DNA from: a virus
Taxonomy: Duplodnaviria; Caudoviricetes
Virus record (IMG/VR): IMGVR_UViG_3300028571_001454
Coordinates: 870 to 64,869 of that record
Reading direction: 5' to 3' (one strand)
Length of the DNA stretch: 64,000 bases
Both the position numbers and the translations under genes were made by a program. Of the stretch, positions 2,250 through 41,171 are shown piece by piece. Below the pieces are notes generated by a model. It was not told where the DNA came from. It saw nothing but the letters and a program-made list of their open reading frames with translations, and searched no databases. How positions within the stretch are numbered: position 1 is the first letter of the stretch; the number at the start of each line of letters is the position of its first letter.

Positions 2250-3587
2250 TTATTTGATATTATAAGAACGAGGATTTATCATAATATTTTTTTCAAGAAT
2301 TAAACCTGTAGCCACATTTTTGTGTATGTCATTAAATTCATACATTGTTATTGGTTTTTTTGCGACATAGAGATTATTTGATTTGTCCCCAAATGAATCA
2401 CCATCTAGCCATATGAATCCCTCAGGATCTTTGTATGAGAATTGCCTGAAACTATTTATTCCATCCATACAGTTCAATAAATAGTCATTTATTTCGCAGT
2501 GAACTTCTTCTATGTTGTGCGACTTACCCAAGCAAAATCCCAAATCTCCGTCAATGGAATCCAGCGATATACGTCTAGTCGTCAGTAAGTCCCTGCAATT
2601 AAGCGTTTGGAAGACATTGTTTGCCAACATGCCGTATTTTTTGTACCAAGTCTCACAGTACTCGTTAAGCACATATCTTCCGTTTTCTATCTTTGGGTAT
2701 ATACCACCCCATTCCAGCGTATCATGCGAGTTGTAGTTTACGAATGTTGCGTGTTCATAAGTCCAATCGGTAAATTGATAAATATTCCTTCTGTTCATGA
2801 ACATCTGGATGGTTACGGCTTGGGATATTAGGTCGTTCCATCTCCTCGTATACATATATCCGGAGTTGTCTAAGTGTTTCAGGAAATCTTGCACATCATC
2901 GCGCATCCAGAAGTCAAGCTTTGATATCAAGAAATTGTTGTAGTATCCGAGTATGTTGTACGATGGTGACTTCCATATGCTCTTTTGATTGATGAATCTA
3001 TCAAGCCAACACCCAGACAAATTCTTGTTTTCCATATACTCTCGACAGAATTCTATCAGTCCGTTGGATACTGATATGTGATCATTTGCATAGCATCTGA
3101 ACCCATATTCATAATTGTTGTCGTGCATGAATTTAAACATATCGTAGTTTATTTGCGAATGTATCAAAGAGTCGTCGTCCATTCTCATATACATCTCGTA
3201 TCCAAGATCACTTAAGAATTGATAGATCAATATGCCGTACCAACGCATCATATTCCTATATCCCATGGAAAAACGTGGGGCAACCCATGCTCTAATATGC
3301 GGATTATTTCTAAGCTCCGCACAGTCCGGCGGACTCCATAGAATTCCGTCAAGCAATTGAAACCTTATTTCCTTCCTTCCCTTTGCTATTCTCTCTTGGT
3401 CTTCGGTATGAAATGGGTGACTATTGTCATAGAATATGATGATATCGTGTTTAAATTTTTGGTTGTAGTTCTCGTAGAGGCTATCTAGGCTCTTAACCAG
3501 CATAGATGCCGAATCCCTTCCGTAAGATTCGTCCCTTTTCGTGTTCATCGCAAGATAAACAATGACTGTCTTTTCTTTTTTATACAT
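2250..3587 (-). CDS. GT15 (KRE2/MNT1-like) glycosyltransferase
   Basis: GYRNMMRW, YMRMDDDS, YDMFKFM..YEYGF, YYNNFLISKLDFW, LDNSGYMYTRRWND resemble GT15 blocks. Confidence 0.7.
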   Translation of the reverse strand: MYKKEKTVIVYLAMNTKRDESYGRDSASMLVKSLDSLYENYNQKFKHDIIIFYDNSHPFHTEDQERIAKGRKEIRFQLLDGILWSPPDCAELRNNPHIRAWVAPRFSMGYRNMMRWYGILIYQFLSDLGYEMYMRMDDDSLIHSQINYDMFKFMHDNNYEYGFRCYANDHISVSNGLIEFCREYMENKNLSGCWLDRFINQKSIWKSPSYNILGYYNNFLISKLDFWMRDDVQDFLKHLDNSGYMYTRRWNDLISQAVTIQMFMNRRNIYQFTDWTYEHATFVNYNSHDTLEWGGIYPKIENGRYVLNEYCETWYKKYGMLANNVFQTLNCRDLLTTRRISLDSIDGDLGFCLGKSHNIEEVHCEINDYLLNCMDGINSFRQFSYKDPEGFIWLDGDSFGDKSNNLYVAKKPITMYEFNDIHKNVATGLILEKNIMINPRSYNIK

Positions 3588-4553
3588 CTATATCTCCATC
3601 GAGTTATTTACTTGTTTCAATATCCACTCGTATGTCTTTTCTACTCCATCTTTTAATCGAGCCTTTGAGTCCCAGCCTATTTTTTCTCTGAACATGTTAT
3701 TGTCCGAATTTCTTCCTCGGACTCCGGTGGGACCTGGGACGTTCTTTATCCTAATGTCCTTGCCAGATATTTCAATCACCATTTTAGCAAGATTGTTGAT
3801 TGATATCATTTCTTCAGAGCCTATATTTATAGGACCGGTAAATTCACTTTTCATGAATCTATCAACCGCCTCTAGACACTCGTCAATATACATAAATGAT
3901 CTGGTCTGGGTTCCATCGCCCCATATTTCTATCTCCTCGCCAGCCACGGCAACCTTCCTACATATCGCAGCGGGGGCTTTTTCCTTGCCGTTGTTCCACG
4001 AACCTTCGGGTCCGAATATGTTGTGGAATCTTGCTACCCTGACCTCGATCCCGTAATTCCTAGCGTACGATAGATAGAGTCTTTCGCTGAACAGCTTCTC
4101 CCATCCGTATTCGCTGTCCGGTGCGGCAGGGTAAGCAGAATCCTCGGAACACTTGGGGTTATTGGGATCTAGTTGATTGTATTCCGGGTAGACACAGGCG
4201 GAAGACGAATAGAAGACTTTACCGACGCCATTCTTCTGACACCTTTCGATCACATTAAGGTTTATTAGAGACGAATTATGCATAACATCGGCGTCATGAT
4301 CACCAGTGAATATGTAGCCTGCCCCACCCATATCGGCAGCCAATTGATAAACCTCGTCAAAACTTTGTTTGAATATGTTGTCACAAACAGCCTGTTGTCT
4401 AAGGTCGCCAAGCACAAACTCATCGGCATGGGTTTTCGCATACTCTGGTAGTTTGAGGTCGGCCGCCATGACCCAATACCCATGCCTTTTGAGTCTTTTT
4501 ACGAGGTGCGAGCCTATGAATCCTCCTCCTCCAAAAACAACAGCTTTTTTCAT
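3588..4553 (-). CDS. GDP-mannose 3,5-epimerase-like extended SDR
   Basis: GGGGFIG, LAADMGGAGYI, YSSSACVYP, YGWEK, EKAPAAICRKV; SD AAGGAG before ATG 4553. Confidence 0.9.
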   Translation of the reverse strand: MKKAVVFGGGGFIGSHLVKRLKRHGYWVMAADLKLPEYAKTHADEFVLGDLRQQAVCDNIFKQSFDEVYQLAADMGGAGYIFTGDHDADVMHNSSLINLNVIERCQKNGVGKVFYSSSACVYPEYNQLDPNNPKCSEDSAYPAAPDSEYGWEKLFSERLYLSYARNYGIEVRVARFHNIFGPEGSWNNGKEKAPAAICRKVAVAGEEIEIWGDGTQTRSFMYIDECLEAVDRFMKSEFTGPINIGSEEMISINNLAKMVIEISGKDIRIKNVPGPTGVRGRNSDNNMFREKIGWDSKARLKDGVEKTYEWILKQVNNSMEI

Positions 4554-4607
4554 CGTACGGTTCTCCTTTTTATTTGTATATAGTCGTATGTAATTCAAAA
4601 CAGTAAG

Positions 4608-6140
4608 CTATCGCCAAGAACAAGTAGTCTCTCTAATCTTTTCCAAATCAACCACGTGGTCAAACTTATCATCTCTTATATGTAGATCAAGGCAGGGCGC
4701 CCAAGCGTATAGCAACCAGCCCTTTTCGTGATCGCTAAAATTAACCATTGGCATTTGAGACTTAAGCGCAGCAAACATGGAGTAGGTTGAATACTTTATT
4801 CCCTGATATATCTTTTTGCATCTCGACAGAGAAAAAAGTTCATATAATTCATACGCCCCATCGTAAGCCAATACATCTACCGGAAGGTCACTTCGGCTCG
4901 TCGTGCGAATCTTTACTTCTCTGTTCTCTTCTGCTGCTATGTCTTGGATTTTTTTGATAAATAAATCCTTATATTCCATGTCTTCAGAAGTCACATAGAA
5001 TTTGTTCGTTGTAGACGACAGTATGTCATAACGCAAAGTATCTATAAGATTGTTAATAAGATGATCATATTGCTTAGTAGAAGTCTCATGTCCCGCGTGT
5101 GGCCCATGCAATTGAGTCTTTATTTTGTCTGACCTTCTCAGATGTATGCCGGTGTATTCCTCTAAATCTTTAAATATATGTCTTCCTATGATGTCTGAAA
5201 CTTTTATTTTTTGTGCTAATTCTATGTAATCTTTGATTGTATCGTAGATATTGGTTTCTTCATGGTGCATAGCAATATTGTAGGGGGATAGCGAAACGCC
5301 TGGGTTTATGTTGTTTATGAAAAGACCATCCCAAGCCCTAACTCCGTTGGAGTTTATCTCTATTTCGGACAATTCCGAAAAATCCAGAAGCCTCAAGTCG
5401 TATATTGCCGAACCCCACATGAAACGATGGTTGTGTGTGGCCCAATTTATCATTCCTTTCACTCCGTGCTTCCGACATAACGCTGCGAATCCTACTACGT
5501 CCAGAAGCCTGTCGCCCAATCCATTTTTGACATTCGTCGTTAATTTAATGTTCTGACGATTCCCAGAGACAAAGAATATCCTTTGGTCATGCTTATCGTT
5601 TGAAAACAAGCCATTGACATTGTAGAGACATTTATATCCGGGCTTTAGTCGAGCCAAGATTTTATCTTCTGTTACATCTGTCCAATCGTACTCCATGATC
5701 GGATACACAGGATGATTGCCAGTACCGCAGACCCCTTTTCGACCCAATAGCCTACAGTCGTCCACTATGATGATATCATCATAAGGCCTTTCTCTCAATA
5801 TATCTAACTCCTTTAAGAGCGGGGTTTCTTCTTCTCCAAATTCTGTGTACATTCCCGAATAGTGAGCATCTAAAAAAATTGTTACAGGTTCATTTATACT
5901 GGCAAGCAACTCTGGAAGAACTTTTTTTGAGTCCCCATGATGAATTTTAACCTCTTGATTGTTCTTGAATTGCTCTATGTTATAATTGAACCATTTTTCA
6001 GAAAGCTCTACTGAGTGTATAGTTTCGTAGTGGCCAAGAACTCTTTTTATCCCATCTCCAAGATAAGTCCCGGTTTCTATATACTGCCTTGTGGGCGTGG
6101 TCTTAGACCTCATATAAAATTCTTCACTTAATATGGGCAT
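4608..6140 (-). CDS. Fusion: SAM methyltransferase-like domain + GT-B O-fucosyltransferase-like domain
   Basis: YIETGTYLGDG, GDS, FLDAH; then GLGDRL, GIHLRRSDK, LSRCKKI..STYS. Confidence 0.7.
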   Translation of the reverse strand: MPILSEEFYMRSKTTPTRQYIETGTYLGDGIKRVLGHYETIHSVELSEKWFNYNIEQFKNNQEVKIHHGDSKKVLPELLASINEPVTIFLDAHYSGMYTEFGEEETPLLKELDILRERPYDDIIIVDDCRLLGRKGVCGTGNHPVYPIMEYDWTDVTEDKILARLKPGYKCLYNVNGLFSNDKHDQRIFFVSGNRQNIKLTTNVKNGLGDRLLDVVGFAALCRKHGVKGMINWATHNHRFMWGSAIYDLRLLDFSELSEIEINSNGVRAWDGLFINNINPGVSLSPYNIAMHHEETNIYDTIKDYIELAQKIKVSDIIGRHIFKDLEEYTGIHLRRSDKIKTQLHGPHAGHETSTKQYDHLINNLIDTLRYDILSSTTNKFYVTSEDMEYKDLFIKKIQDIAAEENREVKIRTTSRSDLPVDVLAYDGAYELYELFSLSRCKKIYQGIKYSTYSMFAALKSQMPMVNFSDHEKGWLLYAWAPCLDLHIRDDKFDHVVDLEKIRETTCSWR

Positions 6141-6378: not shown

Positions 6379-8397
6379 TTATAATGTAATCATTTGAAGA
6401 TTTGGGTTAATATAACTAAGAGCTAAAGAGATATTGGAAGTTGAATTAATTAAAATATTACATTTGGACAAACAAAGAACCTCATTTATTAAACTAGCTG
6501 TTAATTCGTAGTAATCAGCATTTTTATCGAGATATATATGACTTTGATGTAGTTCATACCCTCTATTTTTTATGATGCCAACGCCATCTGATTTTCCAAT
6601 ATTCAGTAGAGCAAAGGCCCATTCTAGGATGTTATCTATTGGTAGTCTTTTAATATCTTTTATATAGGTTAGTTTATTTTCATATCTGTGTTTAAATGCC
6701 ATTATACCAAATTCCGTGTCTGTTGCTAAGAAAATTTTAGCCTTTGGATGCTGGACTAAGATTTGATCAATTTCTTTAAAATACTGTTCTAGGAATATGC
6801 ATCCAGACTCTACGCTGTGACTTGGATGTCTATAATGAACCCCAATGATATACTCAGAATTAGTAAATAATTTATCGCATAATATTTGATTTTTTTCTAG
6901 TATTTCTGGTTTAAATTTAATATAATGATTATATACTCCATTGATAGAACTTCTCCATTCAGCAAGCTCATTAGCATTATTTTTAAGCATATTCTTAAAT
7001 ACTGCTGGTGTCTTAAATTCTTCAGGAGCCTGTTCTCCGGAGCTTAATTTATATTTTAAAAACGTCTTATCAAGATGTTCTGTATCTTTTTCATAATATT
7101 TAATTGGCTCAAAAAAATCTAACCAAGAATTATCATTATTTGTCCAATAACAAAAATGTTGATTGGATCCACGATTTTGTAAGAAAAATTCTTTATTAAA
7201 ATATGGATATGCTCTAATTCCACGACTCATAGTCCCAATTAAAAAATTGAATACAGAGAAAAATCCAGCATCTCTTGGTAAGAACAATACAGGAGATCCG
7301 TATAGATCTCCTTCTATTGACTCATTGGTTGATATTTTCATATCACTATTAATATAGTGTTTATTTTTAAGTTTAAGATCAAGCGAAATATGTTCACATG
7401 TGCATGGCGGTAAATCATCAACATCATAAACGTTAGTATTATTGTTTGCTAGATCGGTCAATTCTTTGCCGTCATAGATAGTTAATGCTCCAAAAGCGCT
7501 TTTAACTTCTACAAAATTATCAAATATATGCGATTTATTGCACCAGTTAAAATTTTTGCCATAAAATTTAGTAAATTGTGGATAGACTTGCGTAATATCT
7601 ACCGGTTCATTTGGTAGTCTTAATGCTAAAGAATCATAATGAATATCTGATTTATCAAAAAGATTATTTGCTGAGATCGCACTCCATTCAGTGTCAATAG
7701 AAACTGATTTTGTTATTAAATTAGCTATATTTTTTGTATTCAGTACTATATCAGAATCAAATATTATTATATAATCAAATTTTGTATTATAATGCTCTAG
7801 CGACTGCTTTAATAATGAGTTTCTGTATTCGGCTAATTTAGGTATTCTATTCCCACAAGAACACCCTTCTATTACAGATATTGGTTCGTCTTCATTCTCT
7901 ATAATAAAAAGGTCTTCTGTATTATTTTTCTGCCATCTCTTCAGTTCTATGAGTGTATCATCTTGATTATTATTAGTAAGTATACCAAATTTAACAGACT
8001 TGAAAACATCTTGCAGATCTTTGTAGAGAGACTTAATGGTATTTATTGTTTGACTAAAAATACAGTTTTTAACTAGAGTTAATACTAGAAGATTTTTTTT
8101 GTATGAGTCATTCACATTGATATAATTAAATTTTCTCCCTTGAATAATATTCGTATTTGTATATAGTCTGGACATTTTTATAGGTCCTATATTCTTATTA
8201 TGATCTTGTTTTTTAATAGATTTATATTCTTCAGATGCTATAAGAGATTTGCGAACAAAACCTTCTCTATATGGTATGTATTCGCTATAAAGCTTAATTC
8301 CTTCTTCATCAACTGGCCTAAGTAATATCTCTTTATATATTTTATTTAATATAACTAGTATTTTTGGATTTATTTTCATTGAAATAACTTCAGCCAT
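6379..8397 (-). CDS. Fusion glycosyltransferase: short N-terminal domain + GT69 (CAP59-like) + NodZ/GT23-like fucosyltransferase
   Basis: RIPKLAEYRNSLL, FDSD, YDSLALR, VKSAFGALTIY, CEH; then AGFFSVF, IGVHYRHP, IFLATD, LSKCNILI. Confidence 0.75.
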   Translation of the reverse strand: MAEVISMKINPKILVILNKIYKEILLRPVDEEGIKLYSEYIPYREGFVRKSLIASEEYKSIKKQDHNKNIGPIKMSRLYTNTNIIQGRKFNYINVNDSYKKNLLVLTLVKNCIFSQTINTIKSLYKDLQDVFKSVKFGILTNNNQDDTLIELKRWQKNNTEDLFIIENEDEPISVIEGCSCGNRIPKLAEYRNSLLKQSLEHYNTKFDYIIIFDSDIVLNTKNIANLITKSVSIDTEWSAISANNLFDKSDIHYDSLALRLPNEPVDITQVYPQFTKFYGKNFNWCNKSHIFDNFVEVKSAFGALTIYDGKELTDLANNNTNVYDVDDLPPCTCEHISLDLKLKNKHYINSDMKISTNESIEGDLYGSPVLFLPRDAGFFSVFNFLIGTMSRGIRAYPYFNKEFFLQNRGSNQHFCYWTNNDNSWLDFFEPIKYYEKDTEHLDKTFLKYKLSSGEQAPEEFKTPAVFKNMLKNNANELAEWRSSINGVYNHYIKFKPEILEKNQILCDKLFTNSEYIIGVHYRHPSHSVESGCIFLEQYFKEIDQILVQHPKAKIFLATDTEFGIMAFKHRYENKLTYIKDIKRLPIDNILEWAFALLNIGKSDGVGIIKNRGYELHQSHIYLDKNADYYELTASLINEVLCLSKCNILINSTSNISLALSYINPNLQMITL

Positions 8398-11426: not shown

Positions 11427-11735
11427 TTATTTTGGCCTATTTAATAGTTTGTTTTGAAAAGATTCAGCATCACTTAGGATATGTTGATTATAACTTTTCC
11501 AATTCATTAAATGTCCAAAAATAAAATGACAATATTTATCACATAATGTTATCAAATTATCTTGTTCTAATTCTTTATCTGCATTTATATGAACTGGAAC
11601 TATATGGTGCACTTCTGGTTTAGTACAAGATCCGCATACAGTGCAACATGGGTTATTAGACAAGTGTTGTTGTCTTATATTTTTCCATTTAGGAGACCTT
11701 TTAGCACATCGTATTTCTTTATTAAAAATCCACAT
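11427..11735 (-). CDS. Small HNH endonuclease
   Basis: CTVC, EVHHIVP, NLITLC..CH. Confidence 0.85.
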   Translation of the reverse strand: MWIFNKEIRCAKRSPKWKNIRQQHLSNNPCCTVCGSCTKPEVHHIVPVHINADKELEQDNLITLCDKYCHFIFGHLMNWKSYNQHILSDAESFQNKLLNRPK

Positions 11736-12736
11736 TATAATATACTAGCCGCTATTAAGCACCCCTTAGCAACTGCATGTAATGGGTCTTGAGCATGTCT
11801 AACTATTTCAATTGGTAATGGAAAATTTGATTCTATTAATTTTTCATTTAATTTTTCTATATAACCATCAGCTTGAGATGTTCCTCCAGCAATAACAATT
11901 TGAATAGAATTTTTAAACTTTGGTAATGATTTATGGTTTGTTAATGCTAAAGACAATTGTTTAGCAGTATACTCTATCAATCTTTCATAGTATGATGAAA
12001 TAGCACTTAATACTGGATTTTCGTTTGGTTCGCCTATTTTAAAACCACCCGACTCCTTCTCCACCTGTACAACACTATCGGGCTCTCCGGTCGCTATAGC
12101 ACTCATACGATCAACCCAGTCACCAGACTTGGTGGTGCTAAAGAGAACCGTAGGCTCGCCATTCAACATAACACAAACATTGGTCATACCAGCGCCACAA
12201 CTGACACCTATACCGGTATAATCATTATCTGCTAATTCAGCATAACATAATGCTTCTGCTTCATTAATAGATCTAGCATCATAACCAATATCGGCTAAAA
12301 TAGTTTTAACAACATCTTCATGATATCCTACGTCAAAATCATCGTCTTCTTGGTCTATTGGTTGGGCTGGAATACAGAAAACAATTTTTTCATTTTCTAT
12401 TGAGGATTTTCCGACAACTTCTTGTATAATATATGCTAATATTTTTTTAGCCTGTTTTTCCTTGACAGATACTACACCCCTATACATTGGCCTACGAGCA
12501 GTATCGTTTCTTTCAACTGCTTTTTCAATAGCGTCTTTACCTAATAAAATAAAAGCGCCATCTGTATCTTTTACGAATACTTTACCAGATAATCCTTTTT
12601 CTATCATTTTATTCGCTATTGGTGTTGATGGCTTAATAATATAGAAAGCATCTCTAAAATCTTTAAAAATTACATTATCATTATCATGATAAGACATTAC
12701 TATAAAACTAGTTCCGACATCAAGACCTTTACTCAT
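11735..12736 (-). CDS. Actin-fold ATPase, volactin-like
   Basis: Phosphate1 GLDVGTS, connect1 INEAEA, phosphate2 GVSCGAGMTN, adenosine IAGGTS, connect2 DPLHAVAKG. Confidence 0.9.
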   Translation of the reverse strand: MSKGLDVGTSFIVMSYHDNDNVIFKDFRDAFYIIKPSTPIANKMIEKGLSGKVFVKDTDGAFILLGKDAIEKAVERNDTARRPMYRGVVSVKEKQAKKILAYIIQEVVGKSSIENEKIVFCIPAQPIDQEDDDFDVGYHEDVVKTILADIGYDARSINEAEALCYAELADNDYTGIGVSCGAGMTNVCVMLNGEPTVLFSTTKSGDWVDRMSAIATGEPDSVVQVEKESGGFKIGEPNENPVLSAISSYYERLIEYTAKQLSLALTNHKSLPKFKNSIQIVIAGGTSQADGYIEKLNEKLIESNFPLPIEIVRHAQDPLHAVAKGCLIAASIL

Positions 12737-17065: not shown

Positions 17066-17818
17066 TTATTCTAGTGATGTTTGATGATCCTCAAATTTAT
17101 TACCGTAAACATCTTCACCATTAAAATACCTTCTACCATTACCGTATTTTTTATCTTTGTCTATGTTGTTTCGTTCTTTACCAAAGTCCATAGCACATTG
17201 ACGTTCTGCTTCCAGCTCCTCTTCTGACAAAATCTTATCACCATTAATAATCTGAAAATCATCTATAAAGTGTCTGGGATATGGGATCACACAGCCAATA
17301 ATATCTCCCTTCTTAATTGTAACAGTATAGTTGGGTCTTGTTAATCTTAAATTAAAGGTGAAGTCTCTTCTTAGGTTATCTGTTTCTATAATAGCAGTCA
17401 TATGATAAAGCCCATCAATATATAAATTAGGTGGATTAATTGTCATAAGATTAACACCATCTGGTGTTCTTAAAGAAAACGTGTTTTGAATAGTAATTGT
17501 ACCCATACCGAAATGACTTCTTATAGATTGTAGACCAGAATTTTTATCATGGTAGTCTTTATCCAGATAGTTTATAGTCACATCGGACGGAGCTTCTCCT
17601 CCATTCCATGTTACCTCTATATCATGTATATTTTTTAGAATAAATCCATGTTGATTTCCCATAACTAATGGCAAACAAAAATATGCGTGTTTTACAAACC
17701 AGTCCCTTTTAAAGTCTCCTTTTAGGGATGAAAATAGCATATTTACGTTATCATTAGTCTGCAACATTTTTGCATGAGCAATTAGAGCGATATGCTTATC
17801 TTTGATTAATTGACTCAT
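17066..17818 (-). CDS. DUF6065-like protein
   Basis: RDWF..HAYFCLPLVMGNQHGF, IIETD, FTFNLR. Confidence 0.7.
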   Translation of the reverse strand: MSQLIKDKHIALIAHAKMLQTNDNVNMLFSSLKGDFKRDWFVKHAYFCLPLVMGNQHGFILKNIHDIEVTWNGGEAPSDVTINYLDKDYHDKNSGLQSIRSHFGMGTITIQNTFSLRTPDGVNLMTINPPNLYIDGLYHMTAIIETDNLRRDFTFNLRLTRPNYTVTIKKGDIIGCVIPYPRHFIDDFQIINGDKILSEEELEAERQCAMDFGKERNNIDKDKKYGNGRRYFNGEDVYGNKFEDHQTSLE

Positions 17819-18711
17819 ATATTTTTATCCGATATTACTCGGCCCTTTTGTGTTCTTGAAATATATCCCATTCTGATCATGTATGGCTCTATACTATTTT
17901 CTATTGTTTCCATAGCAATGCCACACATTGCTGATAAACTTTTTAGTCCTAGAGGATTGCCTACATTCTTCTTCAGAATATTGATATATTTTTTATCATT
18001 ACAATCAAAACCATTTGAATCAATACCCTGACTATCAAAGATCGTATCTATATTAGTTTCTTCTGGGTACATATCCAAATAACTCTTATACCACTGTAGT
18101 CTAGCGTTTAAGATTCTTGGTGTTCCCTTGCTTCTTTTTGAGATTTCTAAAAGAGACTCATCACTTATCATTAGTCCAAGCTTTTGAGCGTTCGACCCTG
18201 CCAGTTTAGCTAATTCATCGTGACTATAAAAAGATAGATGTTCCTTCATAACAAATCTATCATAAAAAGGTTGACTCAAACTTCCTCCACTAGTGGTTGC
18301 TCCCATAATAGTAAATACTGGAAGCTCTATAGATTCAGGTTTGTTTTCAATTACAATATCTAACTTATAGTCTTCCATTACTGGATACAAAAATTCTTCC
18401 ACTAGCTTGGGCAATCTATGAATCTCGTCAATAAATAAAACTGACCTTGGAGCAATACCCATTAGATATGGTAGAATGTTCTTTGGGCTTCTAACATTAG
18501 CAGCGTTAACGGTATATAGATTAACATTCATCTCTGAAGCTATTGCTCCAGCGATTGTGGTTTTACCAAGACCAGGAGGGCCGTCAATTAAAAGATGGGG
18601 AATTACTTGATCCGAATTTTTACAGCTATTAGTAAGGATCTTTAATCTTTTAACAACATCGGCTTGTCCAATAATATCTTCAAACTTTGTAGGTCTTAAT
18701 GAATGTCGCAT
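17815..18711 (-). CDS. ruvB: Holliday junction branch-migration motor RuvB
   Basis: LRPTKFEDIIGQ, GPPGLGKTT, LFIDEIHRL, GATT, DRF, GTPR, C-terminal EPY..GYISRTQKGR. Confidence 0.95.
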   Translation of the reverse strand: MRHSLRPTKFEDIIGQADVVKRLKILTNSCKNSDQVIPHLLIDGPPGLGKTTIAGAIASEMNVNLYTVNAANVRSPKNILPYLMGIAPRSVLFIDEIHRLPKLVEEFLYPVMEDYKLDIVIENKPESIELPVFTIMGATTSGGSLSQPFYDRFVMKEHLSFYSHDELAKLAGSNAQKLGLMISDESLLEISKRSKGTPRILNARLQWYKSYLDMYPEETNIDTIFDSQGIDSNGFDCNDKKYINILKKNVGNPLGLKSLSAMCGIAMETIENSIEPYMIRMGYISRTQKGRVISDKNI

Positions 18712-19139
18712 TTTTCAGCTCCCAATAATTCTAAGGCTTTTTTAATTAAACTCATACTATCATTTACTTGTATTTGATCAAATGCTTTTTCTACTAGAGA
18801 TAGAGCTTCTGATCTTTCAAAACCATACTTCTCCAATGTGTCACAAGCAATATTTGCAACAGACTTGTCTAAAACAATAGCTGTAGATTCTGGCGTTATA
18901 GTGTCTTGTACTGGCTTGTTTGTATTCTCTATATTAGTAATTTTGTATACAATCTTGATTTTCTTTATAACTTTAGGAAACAGTATCGCTCCACAGTCGC
19001 AAGCTACCCTAAATCCTTTTGTTTTAGTTTCAATACTTGTTAACCAATGATTGCATCCACATAATGGACAGATATATTCGTAATTAATATCATAGCTTTT
19101 GGGCTTGATATTCTTAACTATTTTCTTTTTTGTTTTCAT
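18696..19139 (-). CDS. Zn-ribbon protein with RuvA C-terminal (domain III)-like helical bundle
   Basis: CPLC...CDC; C-terminal ACDTLEKYGFERSEALSLVEKA...SMSLIKKALELL; overlaps ruvB start. Confidence 0.7.
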   Translation of the reverse strand: MKTKKKIVKNIKPKSYDINYEYICPLCGCNHWLTSIETKTKGFRVACDCGAILFPKVIKKIKIVYKITNIENTNKPVQDTITPESTAIVLDKSVANIACDTLEKYGFERSEALSLVEKAFDQIQVNDSMSLIKKALELLGAEKCDIH

Positions 19140-19521
19140 TTTCTTTTACCCAAAAAATAAAATCATTTGACTCCTCATCAAATGCGCTTTCCAATAATCC
19201 ATCATGAGATAATTTATTTAACATATTGCTTACCATCCTTGCATTTAGTGAGTCTATAAATGCTTTATATTTTTTTTCTGATATCTTAGAAATTTTACAA
19301 TTTTTAGACGGCACAAGAAAATTTTTTGCGATAAGCATACATTCTTGTTGAGATAAACATTCGTTTAACTCAGTTTTTTCTTCTTTATCTAAAGATGATA
19401 TATTAATATTTAATTCGTCTAATTCTGAATGGTTTTCGCCAAATGCGCTATATACTAACACTCTAGACGACTCCACAAATAAATCTATATCATTAATACT
19501 ATACCATTGATTAGATTTCAT
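19114..19521 (-). CDS. Hypothetical protein
   Basis: Ends ESAFDEESNDFIFW, similar to ECAWDNNSNEMVFW of 41748..42104. Confidence 0.65.
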   Translation of the reverse strand: MKSNQWYSINDIDLFVESSRVLVYSAFGENHSELDELNINISSLDKEEKTELNECLSQQECMLIAKNFLVPSKNCKISKISEKKYKAFIDSLNARMVSNMLNKLSHDGLLESAFDEESNDFIFWVKENENKKENS

Positions 19522-19524
19522 AAT

Positions 19525-19935
19525 TTAGTTCATTATATCGAACATTCCTTTATAGTAATTGGGTTGTTGCAGAAAGTTGACGGCATGTGATCTTAAATGG
19601 TTTTTATACTCACTATTAAGCTTATCATGAACAAAATATATTTTCTTATATATTGGTTCTTTGTAATGATTGTTCCCCAAGTACAGGGAGTTTTTGAAGT
19701 TCCCTGACTTGGAGAAGTAATCATTCACAGGTAACGAACCTTTTGGAAAACTCGGTCCAATATACCATACGTTTGAAGGATATTCAACTATTTCATTCAG
19801 AGTATCATATAACATTTTACCCCAAGCATCCCAAGCGTCGGGATCAAACTTAAAGTATTTTTTATAATGACTCTCCGGATTGTCTTGACTATCATCATTA
19901 TCGTCGTAGTTGTCATCTTCATAATCTTCGTGCAT
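19525..19935 (-). CDS. Hypothetical protein with acidic N-terminus
   Basis: Tightly packed ORF in operon. Confidence 0.6.
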   Translation of the reverse strand: MHEDYEDDNYDDNDDSQDNPESHYKKYFKFDPDAWDAWGKMLYDTLNEIVEYPSNVWYIGPSFPKGSLPVNDYFSKSGNFKNSLYLGNNHYKEPIYKKIYFVHDKLNSEYKNHLRSHAVNFLQQPNYYKGMFDIMN

Positions 19936-37738: not shown

Positions 37739-37950
37739 GCATCGTCTAATCGGTTCCGTTTCTTAAATACTATTGCCATAGACTGAACCAAATCGCTACC
37801 AGAAGTCTGAAACCAGCATGGAAAAAACGCATGGACTATTAAACAAAATCCAGCAACTAAAGATAAACATCCAAAAAATACAGCAAATTTAAAATGCTGA
37901 TAATATGTCATATCATTTTCTATTAAATGCTCTCTAATCTTATTTTTCAT
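37735..37950 (-). CDS. DUF6356-like small membrane protein
   Basis: HLIENDMTYYQHFKFA...VHAFFP.WFQTSGS. Confidence 0.75.
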   Translation of the reverse strand: MKNKIREHLIENDMTYYQHFKFAVFFGCLSLVAGFCLIVHAFFPCWFQTSGSDLVQSMAIVFKKRNRLDDA

Positions 37951-38290
37951 ATCGTTTTTGTCTTGAAAGAAAATAATTCATAGCGTTCACAATACTCTGA
38001 AAATCATCTCCAAGTTTACCTATGCCAGTATTGCAAGCCTCACAGAGCCAGCCCCTAAAACTATTATCGTCATGATCATGATCCAAAGCCCATTTATATG
38101 GAACTTTTTTACAGCACTCACAAACCTCTGGTCTTGGTGGAGCTTTTTTATGTAGCTTGACTCGTATCTTAGAATGTTTCTTAACGCATTTTCTGCATCT
38201 ACTATCAAGATTATCTTTGTACATACTGTGCTTGGGAAAACTTGCTAAGTTTTTACGTTTCTCACAATAAGTACAAATTTTTCTAGCCAT
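37940..38290 (-). CDS. Endonuclease VII-family nuclease
   Basis: CECC, LDHDH..FRGWLCEACNTGIG. Confidence 0.85.
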   Translation of the reverse strand: MARKICTYCEKRKNLASFPKHSMYKDNLDSRCRKCVKKHSKIRVKLHKKAPPRPEVCECCKKVPYKWALDHDHDDNSFRGWLCEACNTGIGKLGDDFQSIVNAMNYFLSRQKRYEK

Positions 38291-39534
38291 TAAAATAGTT
38301 CTTTAATAAGTTTGCCACTATTAGCAATTCTCATTGGTCGTCCATTTTTGGCAGTAAAGTTCGTTTCTAATGAGATTCCTAGTGATTTAAGAACACTCGC
38401 CATCAAATCCTGTGAAGTATATGGTTCGGTAATTACTTCCTTACCATCACTGCTGGTTTCTCCAACAATTGTGCCACCTTTAAATCCTGCTCCACCAACA
38501 ACAACACTCCAGCTTTTAGCCCAATGATCTCGCCCCCCATTACTATTGATATTTGGGGTTCTTCCAAATTCTCCCATACAAATAATAGTAGTGTCTTGTA
38601 GTAGACCCTTATCATTTAAATCACTTATCAAGGCACTCATAGCTTTATCTAAATCTGGTAACTTCTGATCTTGTAGAGTCTTAAAAATGTCGGTATGATT
38701 ATCCCAACCTCCAAGATCAACCTCAATGAACGGAACTCCCATCTCTACTAATCTTCTTGCCATCAAACATCCACGACCAAATCCAGTATTGCCATATCTT
38801 TCTTGAACTTCTTTTGGTTCTTTAGATACTTTGAATACATCCATCTGAGAACTGGTCATCAGTTTAACTGTTTTAGTCAAAAGTTTAGAGTGGTCAGAAG
38901 CATAGTCTCCACGCTTTTCATTAACAAATTTATCTTCAATAGTTTTAAGCATACGCAGTCTTTGGTCTAATCTAGATTGATCTATGTCCATAGTAAGATC
39001 ACGAACTGTTCCATTAGAATTAACCACAAATGGAGAATAAGATGTTCCTAAAAATCCAGCACCAATACTAGCTCCTCCAATACTAACAAATGGAGGAATA
39101 TCAATCTGTGGTATACTAGATATTAATTCATGAGAGATTACTGAACCATAACTAGGATGTTCAATATTAGGATTAGGAACATATCCTGTGTGCATATAAT
39201 AGCGACCTCTCGTATGGTCTGCTTCTCTTGTACTCATTGAGCGAACAATATTCATGTGGTGCATTTGCTTTGCCATTAGTGGCAGATGTTCGCAAATCTG
39301 AATACCATCAGCACTAGTAGATACTGGCTTAAAAATTCCACCAGTAGCAGCACCCGGTTTTAAATCCCACAGATCAATAGTGCTTGGGCCTCCACTCATC
39401 CACAAAAGAATAGCACTCTTATTCTTCTTTTTTAGTTCATTAGCATTTGCTAGGATAGAATCTGTAAAGAATAAAGAAGATGCTGACAACGATGAAATTG
39501 CAGCAGAGTGGTTTAAGAAATGGCGACGATTCAT
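38290..39534 (-). CDS. DUF1501 family protein with Tat signal
   Basis: MNRRHFL; ILLWMSGGPSTIDLWDLKP, CLMARRLVEMGV, GWDNH, GEFGRTP, GRDHW. Confidence 0.92.
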   Translation of the reverse strand: MNRRHFLNHSAAISSLSASSLFFTDSILANANELKKKNKSAILLWMSGGPSTIDLWDLKPGAATGGIFKPVSTSADGIQICEHLPLMAKQMHHMNIVRSMSTREADHTRGRYYMHTGYVPNPNIEHPSYGSVISHELISSIPQIDIPPFVSIGGASIGAGFLGTSYSPFVVNSNGTVRDLTMDIDQSRLDQRLRMLKTIEDKFVNEKRGDYASDHSKLLTKTVKLMTSSQMDVFKVSKEPKEVQERYGNTGFGRGCLMARRLVEMGVPFIEVDLGGWDNHTDIFKTLQDQKLPDLDKAMSALISDLNDKGLLQDTTIICMGEFGRTPNINSNGGRDHWAKSWSVVVGGAGFKGGTIVGETSSDGKEVITEPYTSQDLMASVLKSLGISLETNFTAKNGRPMRIANSGKLIKELF

Positions 39535-40739: not shown

Positions 40740-41171
40740 TTAATCTTCTATATTTTTCCTTTTGTAGAGATAGTTCACTAGTTGAACTGCTCCTTCGTAT
40801 GAGTCACCAACATATCCAGCAGCTAAATTACAATTTGAACAAACCCAGCCACGGAAAATATCTGTATTTGGATAGTGGTCACATATCCATTTCTCAGGAA
40901 CTTTACCACAACATTCACAAGTAAGTGGTTTTTCTGGTGCGCTCTTTTTAGCCTCTCTCAAACCCTTTTGATAAGCACTAAAGCAATCCTTACATTTTGA
41001 ATATGCTTTACCTCTATTTAAAAAGAAGTCATCAATATTTTTTAGCTTATTACAAATACGACAAGCTTTAGTGTCTTTATCTTCTTGAATCTGTTCAATA
41101 AAATCTGCTGCATTAGAATCACTAATGTTTTCGCTAGACGAATCATCATCGAATAAAAATAATTGTGACAT
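40740..41171 (-). CDS. Endonuclease VII-family nuclease (paralog of 37940..38290)
   Basis: CECC, CDH..FRGWVCSNCN. Confidence 0.8.
   Translation of the reverse strand: MSQLFLFDDDSSSENISDSNAADFIEQIQEDKDTKACRICNKLKNIDDFFLNRGKAYSKCKDCFSAYQKGLREAKKSAPEKPLTCECCGKVPEKWICDHYPNTDIFRGWVCSNCNLAAGYVGDSYEGAVQLVNYLYKRKNIED

Follow-up and report, generated by a model that had tools for sequence, protein, structure and literature searches.

Phages of the T4 type process branched DNA with the UvsW helicase and endonuclease VII. The closest described counterpart of the system reported here is the bacterial RuvA-RuvB complex, known from Thermus thermophilus structures (PDB 1IXS and 1IXR) and from the 7PBL series. 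Wald et al. (PMC9477746) place the binding site for domain III (D3) of RuvA on a hydrophobic surface to which both helix alpha3 and the presensor-1 hairpin of RuvB contribute, assign to D3 the roles of tether, nucleotide-exchange factor, and ATPase activator and to the RuvA core that of fulcrum, and describe RuvA-RuvB function across species, with hetero-complementation. In two further papers, alanine at L167/L170 of Escherichia coli RuvA is reported to abolish RuvB activity with junction binding unaffected (PMC2628435), and C-terminal arginines of Pseudomonas aeruginosa RuvB are reported to contact DNA (PMC10071043). Among 224 cultured jumbo phages that were surveyed, no RuvB is recorded (PMC7824862). 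Here, we describe a virus-encoded RuvB and its partner from IMG/VR record IMGVR_UViG_3300028571_001454, a 64,869-base virus record of 47% CheckV completeness, of which 64,000 bases (the window) were analyzed. The partner, a 147-amino-acid protein that we call the adaptor, is probably a minimal RuvA-like accessory subunit, at once tether and activator, of the phage's own RuvB.

The phage RuvB and its partner protein

On the evidence of its sequence, the 298-amino-acid product of the downstream gene is a true RuvB. It has the full three-domain architecture, with Pfam matches to RuvB_N (2.2e-46), AAA_lid_4 (2.1e-08), and RuvB_C (9.9e-20), and its best match in PDB is a RuvB chain, 9dx3_A (8.2e-68), in an alignment that spans the protein end to end. 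Its NCBIfam score lies above the cut-off for NF000868 (301.9 bits against 282) and below that for TIGR00635 (279.5 against 299.05). The positions that are invariant in a 30-sequence RuvB alignment (A4), namely, G44-T51, D95-E96, T139-T140, D151-R152-F153, R199, R286, and R291, include those that we take to be the Walker A and B motifs, the sensors, and the arginine finger of an AAA+ protein; the phage protein has in common with bacterial RuvB both the three domains and the conserved catalytic positions. The basic residues R286, K289, and R291 align with the RxxRxR stretch of 9dx3_A and may be the counterparts of the DNA-contacting arginines described for P. aeruginosa (PMC10071043). The phage protein differs from its bacterial homologs in two respects. 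Its presensor-1 hairpin is present but four residues shorter than the canonical length, visible as a gap against 9dx3_A, so that the stretch from P.MED to GATT measures 31 residues in 88/88 phage and 35 in 30/30 bacterial occurrences in the loci collected; and approximately 18 to 20 N-terminal residues of the PDB chains are missing (residue 4 of the query aligns with residue 22 of the chain).

Many metagenome relatives of this RuvB exist, with 292 to 303 amino acids and at least 70% identity, on contigs of up to 235 kb, and IMG/VR holds at least 461 relatives. A phage GenBank collection contained no match with more than 40% identity; the matches at or below that level, mostly unannotated, we take to be bacterial-type ruvB genes in poorly curated records. 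The RuvB family is missing from PHROGs, where the best match of the phage protein was "clamp loader" (3.5e-21).

The adaptor is encoded in the position that ruvA occupies in bacteria, and the original prediction held that it ends in a bundle resembling RuvA domain III and carries a CPLC...CDC ribbon in place of the oligonucleotide-binding (OB) and helix-hairpin-helix (HhH) domains; both parts of that claim were borne out. When the C-terminal domain of the adaptor was compared by hhalign with a reference set of 57 bacterial RuvAs, drawn from two phyla and three additional genomes, it matched the last ~55 RuvA columns with a probability of 96.4% (P = 1.4e-9). The whole adaptor family (133 members) gave 95.0%, the P values obtained with the 133-member alignment lying between 3.9e-8 and 1.4e-9; a shallower 14-sequence alignment gave 92 to 95%. 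In an hmmsearch of 177,635 PDB sequences with the family profile, the first match was 1ixs_A (E = 3.2e-4), the domain III chain of the T. thermophilus RuvA-RuvB complex, and the second was 1ixr_A (2.3e-3), the full RuvA; RuvA made up 7 of the 14 matches listed, and a shallow adaptor profile had reached only an E value of 0.54. We judge the match to be beyond chance because of the hhalign P value of 1.4e-9 together with the E value of the first PDB match. At the level of sequence profiles, adaptor residues 89 to 147 are a homolog of RuvA domain III.

Fold comparison gave the same answer. Foldseek ranked 1ixs_A first for the adaptor model (TM 0.77 by target, root mean square deviation of 1.8 Å over 48 columns, probability of 0.99) and placed RuvA at ranks 1 to 6, 9, 11, 17, and 26, with a generic UBA domain at rank 15 (probability of 0.16). 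The closest match in both structure and sequence is the isolated domain III fragment of RuvA (1ixs_A; 7pbl_G and 7pbp_G); unlike that experimental fragment, the domain here occurs in nature apart from the core that binds junctions and is joined to a different module. Within the family, RuvA_C (PF07499) is the commonest Pfam match (12/133 members; best, 3.2e-5), and PF07499 is found on 50% of the members of one neighbor cluster in the Atlas. Locus counts here and below refer to the 80 top-scoring loci out of larger sets, near-duplicates included, with some contigs common to the RuvB and adaptor sets; together with the window, the 80 RuvB loci hold 65 distinct RuvB sequences. A bacterial RuvA hidden Markov model (HMM) matched 27 upstream open reading frames (ORFs) in 80 phage loci at an E value of ≤0.01, over HMM positions ~130 to 198. 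EF-Ts, which has a UBA-like N terminus and served as the specificity control, reached a probability of only 25%, on an unrelated stretch away from its UBA-like part. The conserved residues of the adaptor domain are L102, Y105, G106, F107, E111, L131, and L136, and in the PDB hmmsearch alignment L102 and Y105 fall on E. coli RuvA L167 and L170.

The N-terminal part of the adaptor is of a different kind. AlphaFold2, supplied with the 133-sequence alignment, returned a model with a mean pLDDT of 90.5, in which a small, beta-rich predicted zinc-ribbon domain with short strands (residues ~14 to 60; pLDDT of 96 to 98) precedes three helices at residues 92 to 104, 109 to 123, and 128 to 142 (pLDDT of 95 to 98). 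The cysteines of the CPLC...CDC motif are C24, C27, C47, and C49; the first three are invariant in the family alignment, as is G106, and C49 is conserved in 99% of sequences, with P13, Y22, H31, W32, C49, L102, and E111 all at 90% or above. The nearest folds of the N-terminal domain were archaeal eS27-type zinc ribbons (Foldseek probability of 0.44 to 0.63). This domain is basic, with a median net charge of +6 and a pI of 9.4 over the 133 members, the C-terminal domain is acidic, and the linker between them is of variable length, from 9 to 50 residues in different members. For RuvA domain I (OB; PF01330), there was no Pfam match in the adaptor, the N-terminal part scored 0.1% against RuvA in hhalign, and the model shows the zinc ribbon in its place; for domain II, with its two HhH motifs, there was no Pfam match at an E value of ≤1, and the hhalign match was limited to the RuvA C terminus. 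Because domains I and II were sought and not found, we do not class the partner as a RuvA: it carries instead a basic four-cysteine ribbon of approximately 65 residues and, at 147 amino acids, is shorter than the RuvAs collected (roughly 190 to 230). The system is best regarded as a RuvAB variant, of which the RuvB is a member, with a short hairpin and a borderline equivalog score, and in which the partner is not a RuvA but would work like its domain III.

The adaptor family comprises 355 cluster representatives at an E value of ≤1e-3 and 205 at ≤1e-10; among the 150 matches listed, lengths ran from 107 to 203 amino acids, and most aligned with the profile nearly end to end. No fused or longer form was found at an E value of ≤0.001 among 342 candidates of 259 to 2000 amino acids, which is weak evidence. 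Taken alone, the 147-residue sequence had no Pfam match even at an E value of ≤1, no PHROG, and no NCBIfam assignment, and the phage GenBank collection held no match to it.

Genomic linkage and the modeled interface

The two genes lie in a run of overlapping or abutting minus-strand ORFs that encode, in order, a 417-amino-acid protein, two small proteins (p136 and p135), the adaptor, RuvB, and a DUF6065 protein (Table 1). The adaptor and RuvB ORFs share 16 nucleotides (nt), as the original prediction had noted, and a GGGAG sequence 7 nt 5' of the RuvB ATG lies within the adaptor ORF. As with ruvA in the bacterial loci collected, the partner gene stands immediately upstream of ruvB. It adjoins or overlaps ruvB in 64 of the 80 best IMG/VR RuvB loci; conversely, ruvB lies immediately downstream in all 78 of the 80 adaptor loci that have room for it. 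The overlapping pair persists in relatives with adaptor identities to the window protein of 80%, 47%, 42%, and ~30%. Homology of both proteins, their architecture, and their linkage in the genome are established by these data.

A complex of full RuvB (alignment A4) and adaptor residues 86 to 147 (alignment A3) was modeled in one job with three controls. The ipSAE values were 0.62, 0.64, and 0.69 (median, 0.64), whereas no control exceeded 0.00; among reference cases, 58 of 80 solved complexes attain the mark applied, as do 2 of 110 mismatched pairs, counts that calibrate only roughly because our own alignments were supplied. The runs had at least 82% of contacts in common, and the pLDDT of the partner was at least 84. 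The predicted contacts involve RuvB residues 75 to 77, 80 to 82, 84 to 85, 107, 117, 119 to 122, 126, and 128 and adaptor residues 97, 101, 104 to 107, 128 to 129, 132 to 133, 136 to 137, and 139 to 144. If RuvB residues 75 to 85 correspond to helix alpha3 of Wald et al., as we infer, the modeled docking reproduces the composite site of alpha3 and presensor-1 hairpin described in that work (PMC9477746), with the domain III homolog again held on a flexible linker. The original prediction had proposed a multimer model with RuvB as a check, and its outcome was favorable; it should be read as likeness and compatibility rather than as binding, because RuvA-RuvB complexes have already been solved.

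The motor also occurs without the adaptor. In a FastTree phylogeny of RuvB, with three bacterial RuvBs serving as the root, a long branch leads to the phage clade, whose members include the RuvBs of loci without an adaptor. An adaptor hidden elsewhere in adaptor-less genomes was sought in five records, three of them complete, and was not found; the same search recovered one copy in 4/4 positive controls, and PF07499 had no match in the adaptor-less genomes. The interface residues of RuvB showed no clear relaxation in adaptor-less compared with adaptor-bearing loci. The shortened hairpin, which had been seen as part of the rewiring of RuvB to its new partner, fared unevenly: the shortening itself holds, but it is equally present in the 16/80 RuvB loci that lack an adaptor and is therefore not specifically tied to it, since RuvBs throughout the phage clade have it. 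Since the adaptor appears to have been lost approximately five times, RuvB is not strictly dependent on it, and the repeated loss suggests either that the adaptor modulates or targets the motor without being indispensable or that another factor, possibly host RuvA, takes its place.

A canonical RuvA encoded away from the locus, which the original prediction had suggested looking for, was not detected: searches of the record, of a relative that is 78% complete, and of 5/5 complete relatives revealed neither RuvA_N nor RuvC. The two endonuclease VII-like nucleases that had been noted in the window were confirmed by Pfam (Table 1). In having Endonuclease VII ORFs and no detectable RuvC, the virus-encoded system departs from bacterial RuvAB.

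Proposed mechanism and alternatives

We suggest that domain III of the adaptor would dock on the hydrophobic RuvB surface formed by helix alpha3 and the presensor-1 hairpin and that, once docked, it would tether and activate the motor as in bacterial RuvAB. The flexible linker would connect it with the basic four-cysteine zinc ribbon, which would stand in for domains I and II, the clamp on the Holliday junction, and supply the anchor, most likely to DNA and possibly to a protein from the operon that is itself bound to DNA. Made from overlapping genes in a conserved block of primase-like protein, p136, p135, adaptor, and RuvB, the pair would serve phage recombination or replication-fork processing, and the resolvases at its disposal would be enzymes of the Endonuclease VII type, not RuvC. 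Three parts of this scheme are inferred: that the adaptor activates the motor, that the ribbon binds DNA, and the role of the pair in phage biology. The original prediction had the pump redirected to another substrate or partner; redirection to another substrate goes further than these data, by which the motor only seems to be guided by a factor different from the usual Holliday-junction clamp.

Several observations weigh against the adaptor as a dedicated RuvA-like subunit. The homology is visible by profiles only: the window adaptor itself has no RuvA_C match at an E value of ≤1, and the Foldseek E values fall short of significance (0.32 for the top-ranked match) because the C-terminal domain is short. 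No junction-recognition module was identified in the adaptor by Pfam or hhalign. The favorable complex model may reflect the memory that the program has of solved complexes of RuvA D3 with RuvB. An adaptor is lacking in 16/80 RuvB loci, where a p135 homolog directly precedes ruvB, and none was found anywhere in three RuvB-bearing genomes of 100% CheckV completeness (157, 229, and 192 kb); parsimony on the RuvB tree makes the adaptor ancestral, with five changes, all losses. Because the interface is equally conserved in its absence, the surface may serve another partner, such as host RuvA.

Other interpretations deserve consideration. One that we regard as unlikely is that the ribbon, instead of reading DNA junctions, docks on p135, p136, or the 417-residue protein and that RuvB is a fork-remodeling or replication motor, working at forks or origins rather than as a Holliday-junction pump. 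The constancy of p135 (80/80) and p136 (78/80) in RuvB loci, the position of p135 directly before ruvB when the adaptor is missing, a weakly primase-like protein at the head of the block, and the lack of a detectable junction-binding domain in the adaptor (Pfam and hhalign) are all in keeping with such a role, but there is little to identify the 417-residue protein as a primase (E = 0.071, with no PDB match), the winged-helix leads for p135 lie below all thresholds, and a basic zinc ribbon fits direct DNA binding equally well.

Less probable still is a role directed at the host, in which domain III would target host RuvB or compete with host RuvA for either RuvB and so shut down or hijack the host RuvAB system, without service to the phage motor. 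Binding of domain III works across species according to Wald et al. (PMC9477746), and in the 16/80 loci in which RuvB is without an adaptor any domain III that it needs could be obtained only from host RuvA; the existence of these lineages makes cross-use of phage and host Ruv proteins conceivable. Against this, the adaptor is always beside a phage RuvB (78/78 loci), its gene overlaps ruvB and contains the RuvB ribosome site, and the confident model was obtained with a phage RuvB whose hairpin is shortened.

Small three-helix domains form a broad class (a Pfam clan) that includes RuvA_C, and this breadth, the absence of a Pfam match for the single adaptor sequence, and Foldseek E values of >0.1 would leave room for a generic UBA-like domain without RuvB function, in an unrelated zinc-ribbon regulator that happens to lie beside ruvB. 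We consider this the most improbable of the three, given that it is specifically RuvA domain III that comes first in PDB by sequence profile and by fold alike, that the EF-Ts control fails (25%), that the conserved residues are those known to matter for RuvB activation (PMC2628435), and that strict adjacency with ruvB goes together with a complex model that passes its controls. The adaptor as an accessory subunit of the phage's own RuvB is the interpretation that we retain.

Neighboring genes and wider meaning

TABLE 1 Positions of the adaptor, ruvB, and neighboring features in the window
Feature	Position	Strand	Basis or remark
Adaptor gene, 147 aa (amino acids)	18696..19139	-	ORF; stop codon at 18696-18698; zinc ribbon, linker, and RuvA-domain-III-like domain
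Adaptor residues 1-65, basic N-terminal tail and predicted four-Cys zinc ribbon	18945..19139	-	Conservation; pLDDT of 96-98
Adaptor residues 66-88, variable low-confidence linker	18876..18944	-	pLDDT of 60-77
Adaptor residues 89-147, three-helix RuvA-domain-III homolog (profile level)	18699..18875	-	hhalign, PDB hmmsearch, Foldseek, Pfam
Phage RuvB gene, 298 aa	17815..18711	-	Pfam, PDB, NCBIfam
RuvB residues 117-130, presensor-1 beta-hairpin, part of the modeled adaptor interface	18322..18363	-	Gap in 9dx3_A alignment
RuvB residues 75-85, helix before Walker B, other half of the modeled adaptor interface	18457..18489	-	
Gene overlap region with GGGAG Shine-Dalgarno-like site (18719-18723)	18696..18723	-	Sequence read
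p135, conserved 135-aa protein directly upstream of adaptor	19114..19521	-	26-nt overlap with adaptor gene
p136, conserved 136-aa protein with acidic head	19525..19935	-	Homologs in RuvB loci
417-aa protein, weakly primase-like	19939..21192	-	RepB_primase, E = 0.071; phrog_3123, 6.8e-08
DUF6065 protein	17066..17818	-	Pfam, 1.8e-38; gene start overlaps RuvB stop by 4 nt
Endonuclease VII family ORF, candidate junction resolvase	37940..38290	-	PF02945, 1.2e-12
Second Endonuclease VII family ORF	40740..41171	-	PF02945, 2.9e-08

Homologs of p135 occur in all 80 adaptor loci as well as in all 80 RuvB loci, and the phage RuvB is accompanied more steadily by p135 and p136 than by the adaptor; each may be an additional cofactor of RuvB. 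The p135 protein is possibly a winged helix, with matches to HTH_56 in 6/39 and to DsrD in 5/39 family members, weak leads to which the Atlas added only sub-threshold ones; it had no significant match in PDB and none in the phage GenBank collection. Neither PDB nor Pfam held a match to p136. The 417-residue protein, which heads the block likewise in the related loci L003, L005, and L008, had no PDB match, and phrog_3123 is a family without an assigned function; this protein may be a primase-polymerase, which would put RuvB in a replication module. The overlap of the DUF6065 gene with the RuvB stop is also present in close relatives; this gene lies outside the conserved core because it follows ruvB in only 4/80 RuvB loci. 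As candidates for a hidden RuvA core, p135, p136, the 417-residue protein, and the DUF6065 protein were rejected, with probabilities against the RuvA alignment of 0.0 to 0.2%.

Near the block, the window encodes rIIA, rIIB, and DNA ligase. Between the two Endonuclease_7 ORFs, a 414-amino-acid DUF1501 protein (3.5e-103) is encoded at 38290-39534 on the minus strand; its N terminus looks like a twin-arginine signal, and it is a possible auxiliary metabolic gene product. A 333-amino-acid actin-like protein is encoded at 11735-12736 on the minus strand (Pfam Volactin, 1.2e-67; MreB_Mbl, weak), and locus L005 has, at 4003-5004, a 333-amino-acid ORF with the same start (MSKGLDVGTSF). Minus-strand ORFs at 2250-3587, 3588-4598, and 6379-8397 form a sugar-modification cluster with eukaryote-type families, matching Glyco_transf_15 (1.2e-26), a nucleotide-sugar epimerase PHROG (2.8e-83), and CAP59_mtransfer (3.3e-08). 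Locus L008 (JBILCY010000047.1; 3.8 kb), binned in a Terrimicrobiaceae metagenome-assembled genome (MAG), carries the whole phage block with a RuvB that is 70% identical, and other relatives are labeled as proteins of Synechococcus, Flavobacteriales, and Paceibacterota MAGs; these are in all probability phage contigs mis-binned into MAGs and not evidence of hosts.

In its general outline, the phage resembles those with T4-type branch processing, being a large rII-bearing phage with endonuclease VII-family nucleases and a branch-migration-type motor of its own, but the motor here is an AAA+ protein of the RuvB hexamer type and not an SF2 helicase. With the cultured jumbo phages, it has in common its size and its own recombination genes; compared with what the survey reports for them, the situation is the reverse, a RuvB without RuvC (PMC7824862). 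In the open-access literature, neither a phage RuvB paired with a protein of this kind nor a zinc-ribbon RuvA-like protein was found to be described.

A more far-reaching possibility, which we put forward only tentatively, is that RuvB of the phage clade has been uncoupled from Holliday-junction recognition and that a portable, RuvB-activating domain III handle, joined to zinc-ribbon targeting, has turned it into an adaptor-directed double-stranded-DNA pump of a replication module with the primase-like protein, p136, and p135, acting, for example, at forks or origins instead of in branch migration of the classical RuvAB type; if so, it would be the first case of a RuvB whose targeting subunit is not RuvA. 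In summary, phages can carry RuvB, a fact recorded neither by PHROGs nor in the survey of 224 jumbo phages (PMC7824862), and in a widespread group of uncultured phages domain III has been separated naturally from the RuvA core and placed on a 65-residue zinc ribbon. The pair offers a small natural system in which to ask whether domain III alone can drive RuvB, what constitutes a minimal fulcrum, and why the adaptor has been lost repeatedly.

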